From the IMG/VR virus record IMGVR_UViG_2728369608_000007: a stretch of 42,163 bases of DNA, one strand, 5' to 3'. Made by a program: the position numbers and the translations under genes. Shown piece by piece: positions 1-42,163 of the stretch. The notes beneath the pieces were generated by a model. That model made no database searches and was not told where the DNA came from. It worked only from the letters and a program-made list of their open reading frames with translations. Source of the DNA: a virus (Duplodnaviria > Heunggongvirae > Uroviricota > Caudoviricetes). Every line of letters starts with the position of its first letter. The first letter of the stretch is position 1.

Positions 1-267
1 ATGCGCAGAAAAGAATCAAACGTTAGCAGTTTGCCGGAACTCACCAATTTTGAGGTAAGCTATTCCCTAGTTACCAATGAAGTTTACTTGTCTGCATCCT
101 TCACTGATAACATGGCCTGTATACCAAACTGGCCCTTACAAGAATTTCCGGATCAACTAATATGCATTTCTCGAGCAAAAGCTATTGCCCTAATCGAAGA
201 GCTCCAGAAGACCATCGACTATATGGACGCAGGAATCGATCGACAATCAGGTAGCCTGCTCCAGTAG
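1..267 (+). CDS. hypothetical protein (ORF begins at window edge; true 5' extent uncertain)
   Basis: 88-aa ORF in AT-rich DNA upstream of the 281-aa cargo ORF; no recognisable motif. Confidence 0.3.
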   Translation: MRRKESNVSSLPELTNFEVSYSLVTNEVYLSASFTDNMACIPNWPLQEFPDQLICISRAKAIALIEELQKTIDYMDAGIDRQSGSLLQ

Positions 268-568
268 CTGGCGAGTTTTATACTCGTTCCCTGCAACAAT
301 GGGCTTTTGGTAAGGCACTCACAAATAAGGAATTCGTTAAGGCTTTTGTTCTGGAGACTCTGAAAGATACAAGGAATCAGTTGATGGCTGGTTTGATCAT
401 ACTAATTAATATATTGTCAAACTCACAATATATTAATTAGTGGTAGAACATAAAACCGAGTTCTTGACTTTCAATAGCTATTATATGCGATCAACAACCT
501 TAACCATCTCCTTATATTTTATGAGATACTCAAACAATTTAAATTTATGAGCAAAGGAAAATAATAAA

Positions 569-1414
569 GTGAATAAAAATCCCTGGGATATTCCAGCATG
601 GCACGCTCTGGGCCGAGAAGCATCTTTAGTTACACAGCTCATTGGTTCTGGGGCAACAGCCATAGGTAAAGCCAATTATGCAGACAAAATAGGTGAATAT
701 TACACAGCATTTTTTGGGCTTTCTGTAGGTTTTGAGAGACTTGCTAAACTAATACTTGTTGCACACTATGCCATTGAACACAAAGGGAAAATGCCTGATG
801 AGAATATTGTAAGAAAATTTGGACATAAGCTCATTGAATTAACCAACGAGGTTGATAGTATTTCTAAAAAAATGCAACTATCTCTGAGATATTCACGTCC
901 TACACATAAAATTACCTACAAAATACTTGAATGTTTAGATTCCTTTGCTGATGCCCGACGGGGACGTTACGCAAATTTCTCCTCATTAAGCAGCCCCAAT
1001 TTAACCAATAATGAACCTATTAATAAATGGTGGGGAGAAGTAGCCGAGAGTATCCTTGAAAAACATTATTATTATACAGTTGAACAAAGACGTGTTGAAG
1101 AAAATGCTAGGTTTATCAATGCCACTCTTTCACCGTATACAACGGTCATGTATATGAATGAAAGTACCAACATTATGCAAGACCTTATATCAGCCTCCAT
1201 CCGTACTGGACAAAATACCATTGTTCAAAAGTGGGGAAGATTCTATTCTCTTAGCATCGCTCGTTGGCTTGCCACAGTATTAGCAGAACTGTCTGATATA
1301 GCTTCTCATAAATATGGAATAATTAGTTTTTATGGCCTTAGTGAACATTGTTGCAGTTATATAGTTGAAGATAGTTTTTTAAAAAACAGAAAAATATGGC
1401 CACTTCGCCAATAG
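569..1414 (+). CDS. hypothetical cargo protein (281 aa), family not recognised
   Basis: GTG start preceded by AAGGA about 10 nt upstream; long ORF in AT-rich DNA that abuts the truncated invertase; convergent with the invertase remnant. Confidence 0.6.
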   Translation: MNKNPWDIPAWHALGREASLVTQLIGSGATAIGKANYADKIGEYYTAFFGLSVGFERLAKLILVAHYAIEHKGKMPDENIVRKFGHKLIELTNEVDSISKKMQLSLRYSRPTHKITYKILECLDSFADARRGRYANFSSLSSPNLTNNEPINKWWGEVAESILEKHYYYTVEQRRVEENARFINATLSPYTTVMYMNESTNIMQDLISASIRTGQNTIVQKWGRFYSLSIARWLATVLAELSDIASHKYGIISFYGLSEHCCSYIVEDSFLKNRKIWPLRQ

Positions 1415-1418
1415 TTAA

Positions 1419-1769
1419 CTAGAAAATCTGCATAAGGGGGAGAAATCCCCCACCTGTAATAACATAACTACTAAAATTAACACCTTGTTCGCACAACTCC
1501 TCCACCAGCACGACAAGATGCCGCACACTGCGCCCCAGCCGATCCAGCTTCCAGACAACCAGAGTGTCACCTGCCGATAATGTCCTGAGCAGTTTTTTCA
1601 GTCCCGGCCTTTCGGACTTTGTACCGCTTATCTTGTCTTCAAAAAACAGCTCGCATCCTGCACAGTTCAGCGCATTACGTTGTAGATCTGTGTTCTGGTC
1701 ATTTGTTGACACACGTACATAGCCAATAAGCATAGTGGATCCCTCTGACAAAAGCAGGAATGATGCCAT
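1419..1769 (-). pseudogene. DNA invertase (Pin/Gin/Hin serine recombinase family), truncated after about 87 codons
   Basis: MLIGYVRVSTNDQNTDLQRNAL...DTLVVWKLDRLGRS...GVNF matches the invertase N-terminal catalytic domain; the downstream about 100 aa including the HTH are absent and replaced by 17 unrelated codons; homology ends near 1473. Confidence 0.85.
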
Positions 1770-2257
1770 TTGCTCGTTATTTCTGCATTTTCATAAACGT
1801 TGGTTTGGGAGAAGGTGCCCCAGCTATTGGCGTTCCGTTCTTCTGGCCGTCCGCTGCAATGCCAAATTCTGTCATCGACAGCTGGTCCGGTATGGTGTTT
1901 TTGAAGTTTAACGGGGCGAAATTTTCTGCCTCTGATTACCCTGTGCTGGCGAAAGTGTTTCCTTCGCTGGTATTACCTGAAGCCCGCGGTGATTTCATTC
2001 GTATCTGGGATGACGGGCGAGGTGCAGACGGTGGTCGCGAATTATTAAGCTGGCAGGCAGCTACAAACTTTTCTCAGTTTGCCGGGAATATAGGCGATGG
2101 TGCGGGCCACACAATTAATTTTCATGATGGTATCGCCGGAAATCAGCCAGGATTTTCACGATTTAATTTCACCAGTAACTCTGTGGGTGATGGTGTGAAT
2201 TTTGTTGCCGTCAGACCGCGAAATATTGCATTTAACTTTCTGGTGAGGGCTAAATGA
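1760..2257 (+). CDS. alternative tail-fibre C-terminal (variable) segment, silent orientation
   Basis: GVPFFWPS...YP.L...LP..RG.FIR.WDDGRG motif typical of Mu S / P1-type tail-fibre C-termini; reading frame begins at the crossover site. Confidence 0.7.
   Translation: MMPFARYFCIFINVGLGEGAPAIGVPFFWPSAAMPNSVIDSWSGMVFLKFNGAKFSASDYPVLAKVFPSLVLPEARGDFIRIWDDGRGADGGRELLSWQAATNFSQFAGNIGDGAGHTINFHDGIAGNQPGFSRFNFTSNSVGDGVNFVAVRPRNIAFNFLVRAK
1788..1813. other. gix/hix-like recombination crossover site (left end of invertible segment)
   Basis: TTTTCATAAACGTTGGTTTGGGAGAA; shares the core GGTTTGGGAGAA in inverted orientation with the site at 3610-3635 and resembles hix/gix 26-bp sites. Confidence 0.6.
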
Positions 2258-2850
2258 TGACCCCAATTTTTGATGAAAATGGACTGGCTACAGTGCCGGG
2301 CGATATGCGTTGTTTTTATTATGATGCTGAAACATCTGAGTATACGGGCTGGTCTGATGAATATATTAATACTGGCGTAAGTATGCCCGCCTGTTCCACT
2401 GGAATTAACCCTGGCGAAAACATTCCGGGAAAAGTGGCTGTATTTACAGGTAAGGGATGGAGCCATGAAGAGGACCATCGCAATGAGACTGTTTACTCAA
2501 TCGAAAATGGCGCAGCTGTTACAGTGGATTATATCGGTGCCATCAAAGATGGTTATGTCACGCTTTCACCGTTAACGCCATACGATAAATGGGATGGTGA
2601 GAAATGGGTGACGGATACCGAGGCACAGCATAGCGCCGCAGTAGACGCGTCAGAAGCACAGCGCCAGTCACTGATTGATGCAGCAATGGCTTCCATTAGT
2701 CTGATTCAGCTGAAATTACAAGCCGGGCGGAAACTGACGCAGGCAGAAACAACCCGGCTTAACGCTGTGCTGGATTACATTGACGCGGTGACGGCAACAG
2801 ATACCAGCACCGCGCCGGATGTCATCTGGCCTGAACTGCCGGAGGCGTAG
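2254..2850 (+). CDS. tail fibre assembly protein (alternate copy, U'-like)
   Basis: Tfa-like sequence; convergent with and overlapping the 3' end of the expressed tfa gene, as in G-segment cassettes. Confidence 0.8.
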   Translation: MMTPIFDENGLATVPGDMRCFYYDAETSEYTGWSDEYINTGVSMPACSTGINPGENIPGKVAVFTGKGWSHEEDHRNETVYSIENGAAVTVDYIGAIKDGYVTLSPLTPYDKWDGEKWVTDTEAQHSAAVDASEAQRQSLIDAAMASISLIQLKLQAGRKLTQAETTRLNAVLDYIDAVTATDTSTAPDVIWPELPEA

Positions 2851-3262
2851 GCCATTCAATATCTGGCGCACCGGAAGTATCGACCAGTTCCAGTGCGTCC
2901 AGATAATCCAGCCACAAATTATATTGCACCAGTTCCTCACCTTTCAGGCGACCAATCGCCGCTTTACCAGGCCATTGCTTACTGTTTATGTATTCGTTGA
3001 CCTGATTAATCAATTGCTGCTTTTTCAGTTCGGCTGCGGCAATTTGTTCCTCATGAGTTGGCGGTGGAATATCAATCCATGCAGGCATTCCGTCGATGAC
3101 ACCTCTGTATTTTCCTTCTGGTGCTTCCTTCATAAATTCGGCAGCAACAGTGTCGTCAATTTCGATTCCATCATCGGGCCATTCGCCGGATTCCTGATAA
3201 GCGATTTTAAGCTCCACAGGGAAAAACGCATTTTTATCGGCACTGAAAATATATTTCTGCAT
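2822..3262 (-). CDS. tail fibre assembly protein (expressed orientation)
   Basis: 146-aa Tfa-like protein directly downstream of the tail-fibre gene. Confidence 0.8.
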   Translation of the reverse strand: MQKYIFSADKNAFFPVELKIAYQESGEWPDDGIEIDDTVAAEFMKEAPEGKYRGVIDGMPAWIDIPPPTHEEQIAAAELKKQQLINQVNEYINSKQWPGKAAIGRLKGEELVQYNLWLDYLDALELVDTSGAPDIEWPTPPAVQAR

Positions 3263-3264
3263 TT

Positions 3265-3978
3265 CTACCGTCCTATCGAAATATAACTGAATCTGTATTG
3301 CTGTGAGATATCACTGGTTGCCACACGCCACGCTGAATTACTGATATGTTCAAAATTTACAGACAAAACCTGCGGGGCAGGATTCGACGGGTCTGACTGA
3401 ACGGCATCAGACATAACACTGACTGAAATCATCGGCTGATTAGGGAATGGTATAGGGAAGTGTCCACTGATAAAGCGGGTCGTGTTTCCTGAAAAAGTGC
3501 CAAACTGAACAATATATCCACCTGGTAGCCTGAACCATCCCGAACCAGAAGCGAATGCTCCCATATCCGGTATCTGATTATCTCCTGTGCCCACATTCCG
3601 TTTTGCCGCTTCTCCCAAACCAAGGTTTTCGAGAGCTGTTTTCACCGTGCCGTCCGATTTGATATCGCCAAACGGATTCTTGCGGCTCAGGTATTCAACA
3701 GCAAACCCCGATCCCAGCAATTCAACAAAACCGGGCAGATCACCATTATCAAGCACATCCCGTTGCGTTTTATCACTTACAAACTGGGCCAGAGCTGCAG
3801 CAATAAAGCTGGCCTGCCGAATAACCTTATTGACTTGCGCACTGGAGGCTTTCCCTGCTGTAAATCCAGATAAAAGCGCGGGCAACGCTTCCCATTCCTC
3901 CTGCGATATAACATTGGCATTTCGATCCGTTGCAAACGCTTTAAAGTCATTTTTCGCCATCAGAGTAATACTCCCCAT
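3265..3978 (-). CDS. tail fibre protein (constant N-terminal part plus currently joined variable C-terminal part)
   Basis: 237-aa ORF; crossover site lies inside it at 3610-3635 (codons for [10 protein letters not shown]). Confidence 0.8.
3610..3635. other. gix/hix-like recombination crossover site (right end of invertible segment)
   Basis: TTCTCCCAAACCAAGGTTTTCGAGAG, inverted relative to the site at 1788-1813. Confidence 0.6.
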
Positions 3979-33505: not shown

Positions 33506-34135
33506 TCACTCAGGAATCTTAATCTTTCTCAATTCTTTATTTAGTTCACAGATCTTTTTCTTAGACGGGAAAGTATCATACATCCAAAAACCAACAGTCT
33601 CTAAAACTATTATCATAACCATATACACAAGATAATTTAAAAGGCCTTCATTTTGCCCTATGGAAATAATGCAGATAATAGAAAAAAGGGTAAACAGCAC
33701 AAAACACAGAAAGGAAAACAGACGACTAATAATAAATAAAAAACCTGAAAAATCAACATTAATAAAAAACACTCCGTTATCTTTCTCTATATAATTCTGA
33801 AGCTTAATCAACTGATTTATATACTGTCTTTTTTCTAATCTATTGCAAATGTAAATAACATCTCTTCGGTTATAAGAGGATTGCAATTTCAGCGCATCAC
33901 GAATAATTTTATCATTTATTCTTTTTTCTATGGCTTTCTTATCCTCCTTATCCAGATAACGTTCATACTTAATTAAATATAAAATTAACTTCTTGACATA
34001 TTTAGGCTCTTTATACTTATAATTAAAAATGATCTTTCTTATCCAGACTCCCATAACAATCAAACATGAAAAAATATATCCAGCTATTTTCTCCAGATGC
34101 TCTGTATGGTCAATCAAGTATTGGATCATATGCAT
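33506..34135 (-). CDS. hypothetical membrane protein (moron, antisense to the replication operon)
   Basis: 209-aa ORF in very AT-rich DNA; hydrophobic segments at N-terminus and in the C-terminal third; K/E/Y-rich middle. Confidence 0.65.
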   Translation of the reverse strand: MHMIQYLIDHTEHLEKIAGYIFSCLIVMGVWIRKIIFNYKYKEPKYVKKLILYLIKYERYLDKEDKKAIEKRINDKIIRDALKLQSSYNRRDVIYICNRLEKRQYINQLIKLQNYIEKDNGVFFINVDFSGFLFIISRLFSFLCFVLFTLFSIICIISIGQNEGLLNYLVYMVMIIVLETVGFWMYDTFPSKKKICELNKELRKIKIPE

Positions 34136-36309: not shown

Positions 36310-37071
36310 ATGCAGGAACTAACTGAAATGCCGATCAACTATCCATACCCGAGAGAATCTTTTCCTGACTTTTTGAGGGAGTGTGGGTTCACCAATTTTT
36401 CCCACGAACAGCGTGAGACTTATGACTGCTATCGTTTAACGAATGGCGTAATTGTTAACCTTTACACCACCCGGACCATTCAGTTTCAAGGGAACCCTCA
36501 AGAACGTCCCAATGTTGAAACTGCAATAATGTCCCATTTAGGAACGCCCCCCACGGCAACACCACTAGCCGTAGAACAGCCATCTGAGCTTCCCAAAAAG
36601 ATATTCATTGTTCACGGCCATGACCATACTGCAAAGGAACAACTTGAGCTAATCCTTCATAAACTTGGATTACCAGACCATTTCATTTTGCAGAATACGG
36701 GAGGGACTGGACTCACCATTATTGAAGAGCTTGAACGTGAAATTGGGCAAGGACAAACTGCTACTCGTTTCGGGATTGTTCTTTTGACACCTGATGATAT
36801 GGGATACTCAAAGCGCGCCGGTGAAGCAGAAATCCAACCCCGCGCAAGACAGAACGTTGTACTCGAGATGGGTATGCTTCTTTCGTCCTTAGGGCGCAGC
36901 AATGTAGCAATCCTTCAGAAACAGCACCTAGAACAGCCTTCTGATGCTAACGGGATTTTGTATCTGAATTTCAACGACCATGTACGTGAAACAGTTCCTC
37001 GTCTAGTGCAACGGTTACAAAATTCTGGTTTCGAATTTACACAAGCTCAAATAGCTAACGCTTCCTCGTAA
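36310..37071 (+). CDS. hypothetical protein with C-terminal TIR-like/SLOG-type domain
   Basis: KIFIVHGHD ... FGIVLLTPDD ... ARQNVVLEMGMLL matches the TIR-like nucleotide-binding domain signature (conserved Glu in NVxxExG); N-terminal about 100 aa unknown. Confidence 0.7.
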   Translation: MQELTEMPINYPYPRESFPDFLRECGFTNFSHEQRETYDCYRLTNGVIVNLYTTRTIQFQGNPQERPNVETAIMSHLGTPPTATPLAVEQPSELPKKIFIVHGHDHTAKEQLELILHKLGLPDHFILQNTGGTGLTIIEELEREIGQGQTATRFGIVLLTPDDMGYSKRAGEAEIQPRARQNVVLEMGMLLSSLGRSNVAILQKQHLEQPSDANGILYLNFNDHVRETVPRLVQRLQNSGFEFTQAQIANASS

Positions 37072-37135: not shown

Positions 37136-37276
37136 ATGTCATTTAAATACCGGGACAGTCCGCTTTATTACCGGACTGCACGGGAGGCTTTGCGCCTTGA
37201 ACAGTCCAGCGGGTACGACCGGGCGATGCAGGTCTGGGCCAAAGCGAACGTCGGTTTGATTTTTGTCTGATGCAGA
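37136..37276 (+). CDS. small ORF (46 aa), low-confidence
   Basis: ATG-initiated ORF below the length cutoff of the ORF track; weak ribosome-binding site. Confidence 0.25.
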
Positions 37277-37306
37277 ACATGCGCGAAAAGCGTAAGGAGG
37301 TGGACG

Positions 37307-37501
37307 ATGTCTAATATCGATAATAAAGGTTGGGGGTTCCCCGCCCTGTCGAAAAAAGCACATTTCTTTAATTCGGGGGAAGCCATATCACTATGCGGAA
37401 AATGGATGTTCACAGGTATCAGGATTGACGAATGGCATGACCATCCTGAGAACTGCGCTATCTGCATGAAGAAACGCAAAAAGCAGGAAGGCGAAAGCTA
37501 A
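37307..37501 (+). CDS. small putative zinc-binding protein
   Basis: Strong SD (AAGGAGG); Cys/His pattern C-x13-H-x2-H...C-x2-C; stop overlaps the VRR-NUC start. Confidence 0.45.
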   Translation: MSNIDNKGWGFPALSKKAHFFNSGEAISLCGKWMFTGIRIDEWHDHPENCAICMKKRKKQEGES

Positions 37502-40175: not shown

Positions 40176-40372
40176 GCGAGAAACCCGACGATTTACTCAC
40201 CCCGGATGAAGTATGCCAAAAGTTAGGTATTACACAGAAAACGCTATGTGAGTGGAATATTAAGCATCGTCATCGGGCTATCCTGGCACCAATTCGTTTC
40301 AGTGCAAAAGTAGTTCGTTATGAGCGCCGAAATATCGACGCTTTTATTCAAAAATGTCGCAGCCAGTATTAA
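40172..40372 (+). CDS. AlpA/excisionase-like small DNA-binding protein
   Basis: 66-aa HTH-like protein adjacent to the integrase. Confidence 0.6.
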   Translation: MSEKPDDLLTPDEVCQKLGITQKTLCEWNIKHRHRAILAPIRFSAKVVRYERRNIDAFIQKCRSQY

Positions 40373-41693
40373 CCTCGCCGCCGTAGCAATGCCACCTGCG
40401 CAAGTATGCTCCGCTCGTGAGCCTCGAAAGCTTCGCGCTTCAACGCAATCTCTTCCTGTAAAATCTCATCAGAAAAGTCGTAATGTTCTGCCATCGGGTC
40501 ATCTGACTTGCTGGAGTGGTGAAGGCAAAGGAGGCTGATTTCCCTTCGGTCTGAGCGGGAATAGCCTCTTTCCTTCATCAAGGCAATAACATTGCTCTTA
40601 AGGAATTTACGGCACATCGTATTAAATGCACCGTCTTTCCCTTTAACAGTCCCATCATGTTTTATTCCTTTTACAGCCCCGTCCGGGCTGTATGTTTTCA
40701 CCAGCTTATCCAGTGATCGTTTTGAAAATGGCTGCATTGGATCACGTGGCTGCAAAAATACATAATCCCTGTTGCACTCAGGAACTGAATCACGCCAGGC
40801 TTTCTGCTCGTCGATAATCCGCCGGATCTCAGGGGTTATCGGCAGGCGGAAAGCCTTTTGTGTTTTCATAGCCCCTCGCATGCCGATAACCCCTTCCGGA
40901 TAAACAATTTCACCAGCCTCCTCGTGAACGTAGTCCCAGCGCAGGTTATGGACATTAATCGGACGAACACCAGTGATGATCATGAAGCGAACAGCATTCT
41001 TCTGGTGTACAGAGGTGCAGGCAGCAACATTGAGCCAGAGTCGGGCGATTGATTCAATATCGGTAAAAAGCCGTGTGGGGGTAGGTTTCTGTACGCGGGA
41101 GGAAACATAATCATCTGGCAGACTGGCGGCAACATTGCGGCCGTTGCAAAGAGTAGGTGCGCAGAACTTCCAGAACCGACGGAGCTCGGCAAACAACTCC
41201 AGGGCGTTATTGTTCGAGCGAGTAGCGATCCACTCGTCCAGCACTTCCACCAGCCGATTGTATGTTACGTCGCTGAACACCTCGCGCTCGCCGAACGTTG
41301 CTTTAATCCGGTCGATACGCACCCCGTAGGTTGTGAAACTGTCCGCAGGCCACCGTCAGCCATACCTAGCGCTTTTTCGCGCGCCAGCTGGATAGCGAGC
41401 TCCGGCCACTCGCCGAGCTTTTTACCTTTGAGGCCCATCTTTTTTGGAAACTCGGCGTAAAATGTAACCTTACCGGCTTTGCTGAAATCGATACGGAGAT
41501 AGTTCTCTTTTTCGTATTTGGAACGGCGAGCCACGCCGGAAGCAGCGAGGATGATTTTGGCGGCAGCAACACAGATTTTCATGTGTGCGCTGGTATAGGG
41601 GGGTTTACAGGCGTCCCATTTTTCAGATGCGGCTAAAACATCGTCATTATTGGGGCTATCCGGATTATGTGTTACAGTGCGCGGCATTCTCAA
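40369..41693 (-). pseudogene. tyrosine integrase, reading frame interrupted (two overlapping ORFs 41265-41693 and 40369-41322); likely true start near 41582
   Basis: N-terminal arm-binding-type domain in one frame and catalytic domain in another; frames switch at a CCCC run near 41322-41325. Confidence 0.65.
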
Positions 41694-41893
41694 TCCTTAT
41701 CTGCGTAGGCGCAGAAAACAAGCACACACATACAAGTCTTTTCTACGGGACAAAATGCAATGTGTTGCGGCTTTGTGTTACTGGACTGAGTTTATCAAGG
41801 TTAAATACACTGGATCAACATACAGTAAGTTAATGACAGTAAAGCATACAAACTCGATACAACTTACTGATTTTTAAAATGATTTAACGGTAA

Positions 41894-42163
<270 letters not shown>

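Follow-up and report, generated by a model that had tools for sequence, protein, structure and literature searches.

A replacement cassette with a putative HEPN-like defence gene truncates the tail-fibre invertase gene of a SEN34-related prophage

The 42,163-nt stretch of DNA analysed here, in the following called the window, corresponds to IMG/VR record IMGVR_UViG_2728369608_000007 and is a myovirus prophage of E. coli, akin to Salmonella phage SEN34 (genus Brunovirus), to which its baseplate genes, its tail genes, and a gene for a protein of 88 amino acids (aa) at its end are related. Beside this end gene, an AT-rich cassette encoding a 281-aa protein has replaced the 3' half of the tail-fibre invertase gene. 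The original prediction, made from the DNA letters, had claimed such a replacement and was right in substance. The cargo is plausibly a member of a new HEPN-like defence family. The following features were assigned to this part of the window (plus and minus denote the strand).

1-267, plus: complete 88-aa gene, its start being window base 1
283-1472: AT-rich replacement cassette of 1190 bp, guanine-plus-cytosine (GC) content 0.361 vs 0.491 for the whole window
290-409, plus: dinI-like 3' relic, frameshifted, approximately the last 40 codons, stop TAA at 407-409
401-441: perfect palindrome with 17-bp arms (401-417 and 425-441, 100% complementary) and a 7-nt spacer
491-565, plus: AT-rich spacer with two sigma-70-like promoter matches from a consensus scan (491-518 and 538-565) and an AAGGA ribosome-binding site at ~554-558
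569-1414, plus: 281-aa gene of an unannotated family with a predicted HEPN-like fold, candidate single-gene defence RNase, convergent with the invertase stump
1436-1451: hairpin GGGGGA-GAAA-UCCCCC between the convergent genes, 22 nt beyond the stop codon of the 281-aa gene, within the invertase frame's junk tail
1419-1769, minus: invertase stump with the native start (MLIGY) at 1733, 87 native codons to 1473, then 17 unrelated codons and a stop

The cassette and the slot it occupies

In Pfam, the similarity of the invertase stump is confined to the N-terminal catalytic domain of serine invertases (PF00239, E 1.5e-28, profile positions 2-98 of 145). The stump also matches phrog_125 ('DNA invertase') and is labelled 'recombinase family protein, missing C-terminus' in RefSeq. 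An alignment with the complete PinE (184 aa) encoded by a sister prophage (locus L019) shows that residues 1-87 (MLIGY...EELCEQGVNF) are retained and residues 88-184 are lost, and the stump is devoid of the E-helix and of the C-terminal helix-turn-helix (HTH) DNA-binding domain. This alignment agrees with the predicted divergence of the frame after ...EELCEQGVNF into 17 unrelated codons and a stop. Likewise, the break had been placed at about 1472/1473, and intact pin/P2-type invertase genes align with the DNA of the window down to position 1473, or to 1467 in the case of some relatives.

Prophages of the same type with an intact pinE occur at the same site in RIVM_C036204 (L019) and CB9615 (L088). 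Homology to L019 covers window positions -597 to 282 and 1473 to 3085 with an unrelated stretch in between, and this comparison with an intact invertase, which had been proposed as a check, sets the limits of the replaced stretch at 283-1472. In place of the cassette, L019 and L088 carry 1065 bp that contain a 215-aa gene with a GC content of 0.33 and the last 294 nt of pinE, i.e., the cassette stands where its sisters have the 215-aa gene and the final 97 codons of pinE. The sister prophages thus bear out that foreign AT-rich DNA with the 281-aa gene replaced the 3' part of the invertase gene, but the idea of a simple cargo replacement holds in part only: a resident 215-aa gene was displaced as well and the cassette contains a dinI-like relic, so that this was not a clean insertion. 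A similar restriction applies to the AT-rich character that had been ascribed to all DNA from the break to the window start. It is confirmed for 283-1472, but not for 1-282, which is backbone with a GC content of 0.436 and 95-96% identity to sister prophages lacking the cassette.

The 88-aa gene in this backbone part had been taken for an upstream open reading frame (ORF) fragment. It is in fact a complete gene (phrog_17793, E 5.8e-46, profile positions 1-88 of 91). Its SEN34 homologue adjoins the integrase and attP, and in the window the left attachment (att) core lies 207-244 bp before base 1. The 88-aa gene is conserved, att-proximal phage backbone outside the cargo. A two-gene system of the 88-aa and the 281-aa gene was considered and rejected, since the 88-aa gene occurs in 125 genomes and the cassette in only 44, and relatives of the 281-aa protein are found elsewhere without it.

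The yfhH/yfhL interval of several complete E. coli genomes holds DNA identical or near-identical to the window (a prophage of ~42 kb). Mapped against the empty K-12 site, a 38-bp att core that represents the 5' start of yfhL is duplicated at window positions -244 to -207 and 41913-41950; the prophage is integrated into the 5' end of yfhL. Due to this duplication around the window, positions 1-1472 are situated within the prophage, at the end that lies away from the integrase and adjoins the tail-fibre module, and a location outside the prophage is ruled out.

The cassette is present in 44 of 5426 complete E. coli genomes, in all cases beside a truncated recombinase. A full-length invertase next to the same gene, which the original prediction had named as a refuting observation, was found in none of these 44 carriers. 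The extent of the cassette is identical in 43 of them, the remaining one having IS421 beside the cassette. Both the constant extent and the constant truncation point to one founding event. In strain CAU16175 (NZ_CP047378.1, ~4220604-4224253), IS421 (IS4-like) is inserted in the stretch that matches window positions 1-2300, which represents a further rearrangement of the hotspot. Searches of the literature by accession numbers or phage names returned no papers.

In every sampled sister prophage at the yfhL site without the cassette, the slot is occupied by the AT-rich 215-aa gene (WP_001288814/816/820; L019 4874-5521, L088 4826-5473, and L018 4206-4853), for which no match was obtained in Pfam or PADLOC. 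Remote homology between this cargo and the 281-aa family was rejected (hhalign probability 0.2), and the two are regarded as unrelated. In IAI1 and JNEC-KY175, the slot holds the 215-aa gene and an acyltransferase gene, without an invertase; O-antigen-type acyltransferases and a serine acetyltransferase are further contents among relatives. In F829, where the integration site is not the same, the slot contains a gene for the type IV restriction enzyme GmrSD (PADLOC mREase_IV, E = 0) that abuts an invertase truncated at another point. At least five cargo states with conserved flanks were observed between the 88-aa gene and the fibre module among related phages, and this slot is a genuine cargo hotspot. 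On at least three separate occasions, cargo turnover has clipped the invertase. The expectation that the distal end of a prophage tail module serves as a cargo site is thereby borne out, the interchangeable contents including a restriction enzyme.

The cassette itself is composite and consists of the frameshifted dinI-like relic with a terminator palindrome, the 281-aa gene, and a hairpin. Positions 290-409 are 72-76% identical at the nucleotide level to prophage genes annotated as 'DinI-like family protein', and reading in two frames (KAFVLETLKDT and ESVDGWFDHTN*) yields a DinI-like C-terminus with a frameshift. The palindrome 401-441 folds stably (folding free energy, dG, -17.0; z -6.4; equalled by 0 of 200 shuffles), and as the stop codon of the relic lies inside, it looks like the dinI terminator. 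For the hairpin between the convergent genes, a GGGGG-N5-CCCCC structure at 1436-1450 had been predicted. The hairpin exists, but with a spacer of six nucleotides and an end at 1451: GGGGG (1436-1440), AGAAAT, and CCCCC (1447-1451) form a 6-bp stem with a GAAA loop (dG -14.6 and z -2.7 on the plus strand). Due to the lack of a U-tract it was not scored as an intrinsic terminator. An Rfam search of window positions 1-2000 returned nothing.

The cassette is probably a recombined piece of another prophage end. In the dusA prophage of strain CX05 (L094, 3868-4774), an integrase gene is followed by a dinI-like gene convergent with an intact pinE and then by an invertible fibre segment, an arrangement which suggests where the cassette may have been assembled. 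In the simplest history, the 281-aa gene would have been inserted into a prophage end of this kind, between dinI and pin and with loss of the 3' half of pin, and the block would then have been transferred into the yfhL prophage. The left joint at 282/283 would be illegitimate, cutting the 5' part of dinI away, and the right side would represent a homologous exchange within pin or the fibre segment.

Tail-fibre inversion

Adjacent to the stump, the window contains a complete invertible segment with the following parts.

1795-1814: left crossover site AAACGTTGGTTTGGGAGAAG, a 20-nt inverted repeat with 3609-3628; in flipped genomes homology breaks at 1814
1815-3608: invertible segment of 1.8 kb with a silent fibre C-terminus, two assembly genes, and the expressed fibre C-terminus
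1796-2257, plus: silent alternative fibre C-terminus, by annotation
2254-2850, plus, and 2822-3262, minus: tail-fibre assembly genes, by annotation
3265-3978, minus: tail-fibre gene as assembled (237 aa), the constant N-terminus being joined to a variable C-terminus
3609-3628: right crossover site, a 20-nt inverted repeat of 1795-1814

Both crossover sites are intact, and by position the 5' coding part, which harbours the enhancer in Hin and Gin systems, is retained in the stump. Since the stump is without residues 88-184 including the HTH domain and hence cannot bind DNA, any inversion must be catalysed in trans. Inversion has taken place: in WP3-W18-ESBL-08 the segment 1815-3608 is exactly inverted (99.9% identical) between flanks that are 100% identical. 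The fibre orientation of the window was found in 4 of the 44 carriers and the opposite one in at least 20. In most carriers a second pin gene was not detectable by megablast with a chimeric query of the cassette and the 3' half of pinE, and Pin-type 3' halves occur in 37% of complete E. coli genomes. Considering the 21 carriers with 100% identity, the minority orientation was observed in two of three with a second pin locus vs one of 18 without (one-sided Fisher test by hand, p ~0.04, uncorrected for shared ancestry and with 22AR0747 and MSB1_6C possibly being clonal).

The original prediction held that the insertion had inactivated phase variation of the tail fibre. This is correct in cis, where the invertase is dead, but too strong as a general statement, since the segment is exactly inverted between otherwise identical carriers and the rare orientation is enriched in those with a second pin. 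Inversion is crippled, not abolished. The opposite notion, that inversion simply continues, had to be tempered as well, with only 4 of 44 carriers in the orientation of the window and most carriers without a second pin detectable by megablast. Switching is therefore non-autonomous and mostly frozen, and the segment is still a substrate for invertases supplied in trans.

The 281-aa family and its proposed function

The 281-aa ORF had been proposed with a GTG start and a good Shine-Dalgarno sequence, and it is real: the GTG start is common to six of seven homologues, AAGGA precedes it by approximately 10 nt, and the ratio of nonsynonymous to synonymous substitution rates of 0.05-0.26 indicates purifying selection. 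Furthermore, the gene is annotated as intact in every listed E. coli carrier and never as a pseudogene. The family is represented by 486 relatives in a 90%-identity collection, and at 50% identity by 955 clusters. Almost all members have a length of 270-285 aa, every member named by its source is called 'hypothetical', and the longer ones (294-357 aa) revealed no informative fusions when scanned. Relatives with 45-74% identity occur in the Gamma-, Alpha-, and Betaproteobacteria, Mycobacterium, Nitrospinota, Gemmatimonadota, and Binatia, and those with 31-38% identity in Promicromonospora, Acidobacteriota, and Planctomycetota. The GC content of the gene is 3-26 points below that of its flanks in all hosts examined, and nucleotide similarity among homologous loci covers the ORF and only 15-37 nt upstream, which is the signature of an often-transferred minimal gene. 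A distant member of 273 aa is encoded by the IncX1 plasmid pE001 (NC_019067; L092, 3468-4289). It shows 33% identity over the N-terminal half, contains all invariant residues, and is situated near a resolvase and a DqlB type I toxin gene. This distant member is carried by over 100 conjugative plasmids of the IncX type from E. coli, Klebsiella, and Salmonella.

Except for restriction genes, the family has no regular company. When all genes within 4 kb of 60 species-level loci were clustered, hsdR, hsdS, and hsdM were the sole recurrent neighbours (12 of 60 loci), so that the candidate of a conserved partner gene was dropped; the family gene is always solitary. At least eight of these loci, and additionally locus L016, show the order hsdM-hsdS-X-hsdR (X being the family gene) with nearly abutting genes, at several levels of divergence. 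In tested cases, genes embedded in Type I restriction operons turned out to be defensive, and the 281-aa protein is not among the PADLOC candidates that were derived from this embedding approach. In about 80% of the family loci, including the window, no Type I restriction system is located within 10 kb. Further contexts are a position downstream of hsdR in an integrase island with HNH, Vsr, and DUF4917 genes, the P2 gpA-portal slot beside a PvuII restriction system, the P2 G-FI slot, a lambdoid prophage end, a toxin-antitoxin island with PIN/Phd pairs, a site 3.5 kb from a Thoeris system, and, for the distant member, the accessory region of the IncX1 plasmid.

The AlphaFold2 model of the 281-aa protein (predicted local distance difference test score 83.5, predicted template modelling score 0.84) is all-helical and contains the four-helix up-down bundle of ~100-120 residues that forms the HEPN core. 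Many HEPN chains were retrieved in the fold search, including AF0298, MNT-HEPN toxins, Csm6, sacsin, AbiV, AbiA, and the prophage protein HepS. With Foldseek, no match in PDB or BFVD reached E < 0.4. The level of fit to 4NQF equals that reported in a review for AbiB, AbiJ, and AbiV (PMC13064643). Across 234 full-length members, E56, K60, H86, and W154 are invariant, R133 and Y134 are conserved in more than 99%, R57 and R232 in 99%, and E17 in 97%, and position 82 is R or K in 95%. The second HEPN signature, an Ex3[KR] motif with an upstream acidic residue (PMC3710099, Anantharaman et al.), is represented by E56-R-L-A-K60 in 234 of 234 members and lies on the predicted helix 41-70; R133-Y134-x-N136 forms a separate invariant element. 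In the AbiV and AF0298 families, the motif His is absent and a conserved His is located N-terminal to the motif Arg (PMC3710099). As this is the pattern of the 281-aa family, the latter is filed as HEPN-like. The earlier guess of an Abi/HEPN-type protein therefore fits the fold search, but finds no membership in any named HEPN family at the sequence level. According to its model, the protein is HEPN-like in fold, and it is probably HEPN-like in chemistry as well.

The most likely function of this candidate would be that of a HEPN-type RNase that aborts phage infection. In detail, the 281-aa protein would be a stand-alone effector with a HEPN-fold N-terminal helical bundle and a non-canonical active site composed of E56-x3-K60, H86 preceded by R/K82, and R133-Y134. 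The lysogen would express the gene from the gene's own AT-rich promoter region, and the product would be a latent, metal-independent endoribonuclease. Upon superinfection, the incoming phage would trigger the RNase, an essential RNA (tRNA or rRNA) would be cut, and the infection would be aborted. Taken together with the variable slot, the replacement, and the proposed origin of the cassette, we consider this the best overall explanation and put its chances at slightly better than even.

A number of observations weigh against it. The 281-aa query found no match in Pfam (E <= 1), NCBIfam, or PHROGs, nor among the 5027 models of PADLOC-DB v2.0.0. Among 61 diverse relatives, PADLOC matches at chance level were obtained in only four and nothing informative in Pfam, the sole Pfam family touched being HEPN_AbiV (PF18728) by a single relative with E 0.0022. 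The family profile produced only chance matches against all PDB sequences and no solved HEPN structure. The canonical Rx4-6H motif, which marks the beginning of the last core helix in HEPN proteins, is not conserved, the spacing in the family being [RK]82-x3-H86, and R133 falls into a low-confidence loop of the model (129-147). As to context, the window copy has no hsd genes in its prophage end and no adjacent restriction system, antitoxin, or sensor, and one relative is located among housekeeping genes.

The absence of the canonical motif also underlies the alternative of a non-catalytic HEPN-like nucleic-acid binder or regulator, or of a conversion factor unrelated to defence, in slots that merely tolerate insertions; we regard this as unlikely. 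HEPN domains without Rx4-6H can be non-catalytic binders, e.g., MtlR (PMC3710099), and the acyltransferases in the same slot of relatives are conversion rather than defence genes. Yet E, K, H, R, Y, and W remain invariant across phyla at 26-48% overall identity, as residues of an active site would, and the repeated embedding in Type I restriction operons and P2 defence hotspots speaks for a role in conflict.

Improbable is also a type III toxin-antitoxin toxin resembling AbiV, a HEPN RNase that binds to a hairpin in a non-coding RNA encoded upstream and is inhibited by this RNA (bioRxiv 10.1101/2024.05.05.592566). In this case, an RNA encoded in cis between 283 and 568, e.g., by the hairpin 401-441, would restrain the RNase, the system would mainly stabilise mobile elements, and defence would be secondary. 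A strongly folding hairpin is indeed present in this 286-nt region upstream of the 281-aa gene, but its position at the stop codon of the dinI relic explains it as the terminator of the latter. One relative lies among toxin-antitoxin pairs; in the restriction operons, however, the gene starts at the hsdS stop or only a few bases away from it, so that an upstream RNA would not fit in. Homologous loci are similar upstream over the few nucleotides given above only, and Rfam offered no candidate.

Very little credence is given to a counter-defence or anti-restriction factor that would help the phage, e.g., by shielding it from Type I restriction when it enters a cell or is induced. Restriction must be evaded by the prophages and conjugative IncX plasmids that encode the family, but chromosomal hsdM-hsdS-X-hsdR operons without phage genes, in which the gene is embedded on the same strand, are an unlikely place for an inhibitor. 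Moreover, a protein of 281 aa with enzyme-like conservation does not resemble the known small, acidic anti-restriction proteins that mimic DNA. That the invertase truncation is ordinary decay of a defective prophage, unlinked to the gain of cargo, is hardly credible, even though the integrase of the window is damaged by a 79-bp deletion and one sister prophage has a frameshifted pinE without a cargo change.

The proposed abortive HEPN-type RNase could be extended to the whole family, which would then represent a widespread but so far unrecognised defence system of one protein only. This minimal HEPN RNase, its active site being non-canonical (E-x3-K, H86, and R133), would serve as a PrrC-like backup of Type I restriction without an NTPase sensor and would also be able to work alone on prophages and IncX plasmids. 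This is a tentative proposal, and we consider it doubtful in its full breadth. If true, there would have to be a novel mechanism by which a HEPN toxin is held latent and then triggered.

Some features elsewhere in the prophage are mentioned for completeness. The deletion in the integrase gene (40369-41766, minus) has its breakpoint at 41345/41346 with 7 bp of microhomology, in comparison to the otherwise identical prophage of 22AR0747. Since the frame is broken, this prophage copy may have lost the ability to excise. A 253-aa protein with a TIR domain of the CAP12/Pycsar-effector type (PF10137, E 2.9e-31) is encoded at 36310-37071 (plus), within the replication module, with the DNA polymerase gene on one side and the VRR-NUC/SNF2 genes on the other, and is a possible second defence or counter-defence gene. 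The 209-aa ORF at 33506-34135 (minus) is opposed to the flanking replication genes (DUF2815 and DNA polymerase), has no Pfam match, and is positioned like a cargo (moron) gene. At 37136-37314, a gene for an ANR-family regulator is frameshifted according to RefSeq at the corresponding place of 22AR0747 (record positions 1338247-1338425).

Comparison with known systems

The inversion module resembles those of Pin, Gin, Cin, and Hin in the serine-invertase catalytic domain, the 20-bp inverted crossover sites, the alternative fibre C-terminus, and the paired assembly genes, but differs in that the invertase of the window lacks residues 88-184 including the HTH domain. Cargo turnover at the prophage end thus erodes the phage's own host-range switch, and fibre switching would then depend on the invertases of other prophages.

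With conserved flanks and interchangeable AT-rich cargo including known defence genes, the slot is similar to the Z/fun, tin, and old slots of P2 and to the P2/P4 hotspots (Rousset et al. 2022, PMC9122126), and members of the 281-aa family occupy the gpA-portal and G-FI slots of P2 themselves. In contrast to these, the slot of the window belongs to a SEN34-like lineage integrated at yfhL or near paoD, and its cargo turnover repeatedly erodes the neighbouring invertase.

Among HEPN proteins, the structural similarity to HepS, a HEPN protein of the Gifsy-1 prophage (PDB 9oik), and to HEC-08, a HEPN protein embedded in Hma systems, is weak and restricted to the HEPN core, and PADLOC gave no match to either. 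HEC-08 has DUF3644, zinc ribbons, and a canonical Rx4-6H motif, unlike the 281-aa protein. The resemblance to AbiV of Lactococcus (PF18728, PDB 9bj5) is closer. Both are single protein genes of modest size with a helical HEPN fold, and their fit to 4NQF is of equal quality. The two families share a degenerate or shifted R...H arrangement with the His N-terminal to the basic residue, and an acidic/basic pair in helix 2. However, there is no significant sequence match, the 281-aa protein has an extra C-terminal helical half compared to the 201 aa of AbiV, and the working R91-x5-H97 of L. lactis AbiV is opposed by R/K-x3-H and a distant R133 in the window protein. A conserved upstream RNA partner like abiV2 is not evident in the 281-aa loci either; the 286 nt upstream in the window contain a strong hairpin, which looks like the terminator of the dinI relic.

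On the whole, the 281-aa family is a solid lead in a crowded field rather than a new principle. If it is defensive, a function would be assigned to about a thousand 50%-identity clusters from several bacterial phyla outside curated libraries. Its carriers include clinically common E. coli lineages (a strain labelled ST38 as well as O26 and O111 type strains) in addition to the IncX plasmids.

The order hsdM-hsdS-X-hsdR corresponds to the gene order of prrA-B-C-D. At the E. coli prr locus, the gene of PrrC, an anticodon nuclease of the HEPN class, lies inside a Type I hsd operon, like the relatives found between hsdS and hsdR in at least eight of the 60 loci. PrrC occurs only in linkage with EcoprrI homologues, becomes active upon inhibition of the restriction enzyme, and has been termed a 'second-strike restriction RNase' (PMC1484252; PMC3710099). 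By analogy, the relatives between hsdS and hsdR would probably deliver a second strike after neutralisation of the restriction enzyme. Different from PrrC and RloC, the 281-aa protein has no N-terminal ABC-type nucleoside triphosphatase (no P-loop or ABC match in Pfam and NCBIfam), and no sequence similarity to PrrC was detected. The hsdS-X-hsdR position would thus offer a compact system for the coupling of RNase and restriction, which is simpler than PrrC due to the missing ATPase domain.

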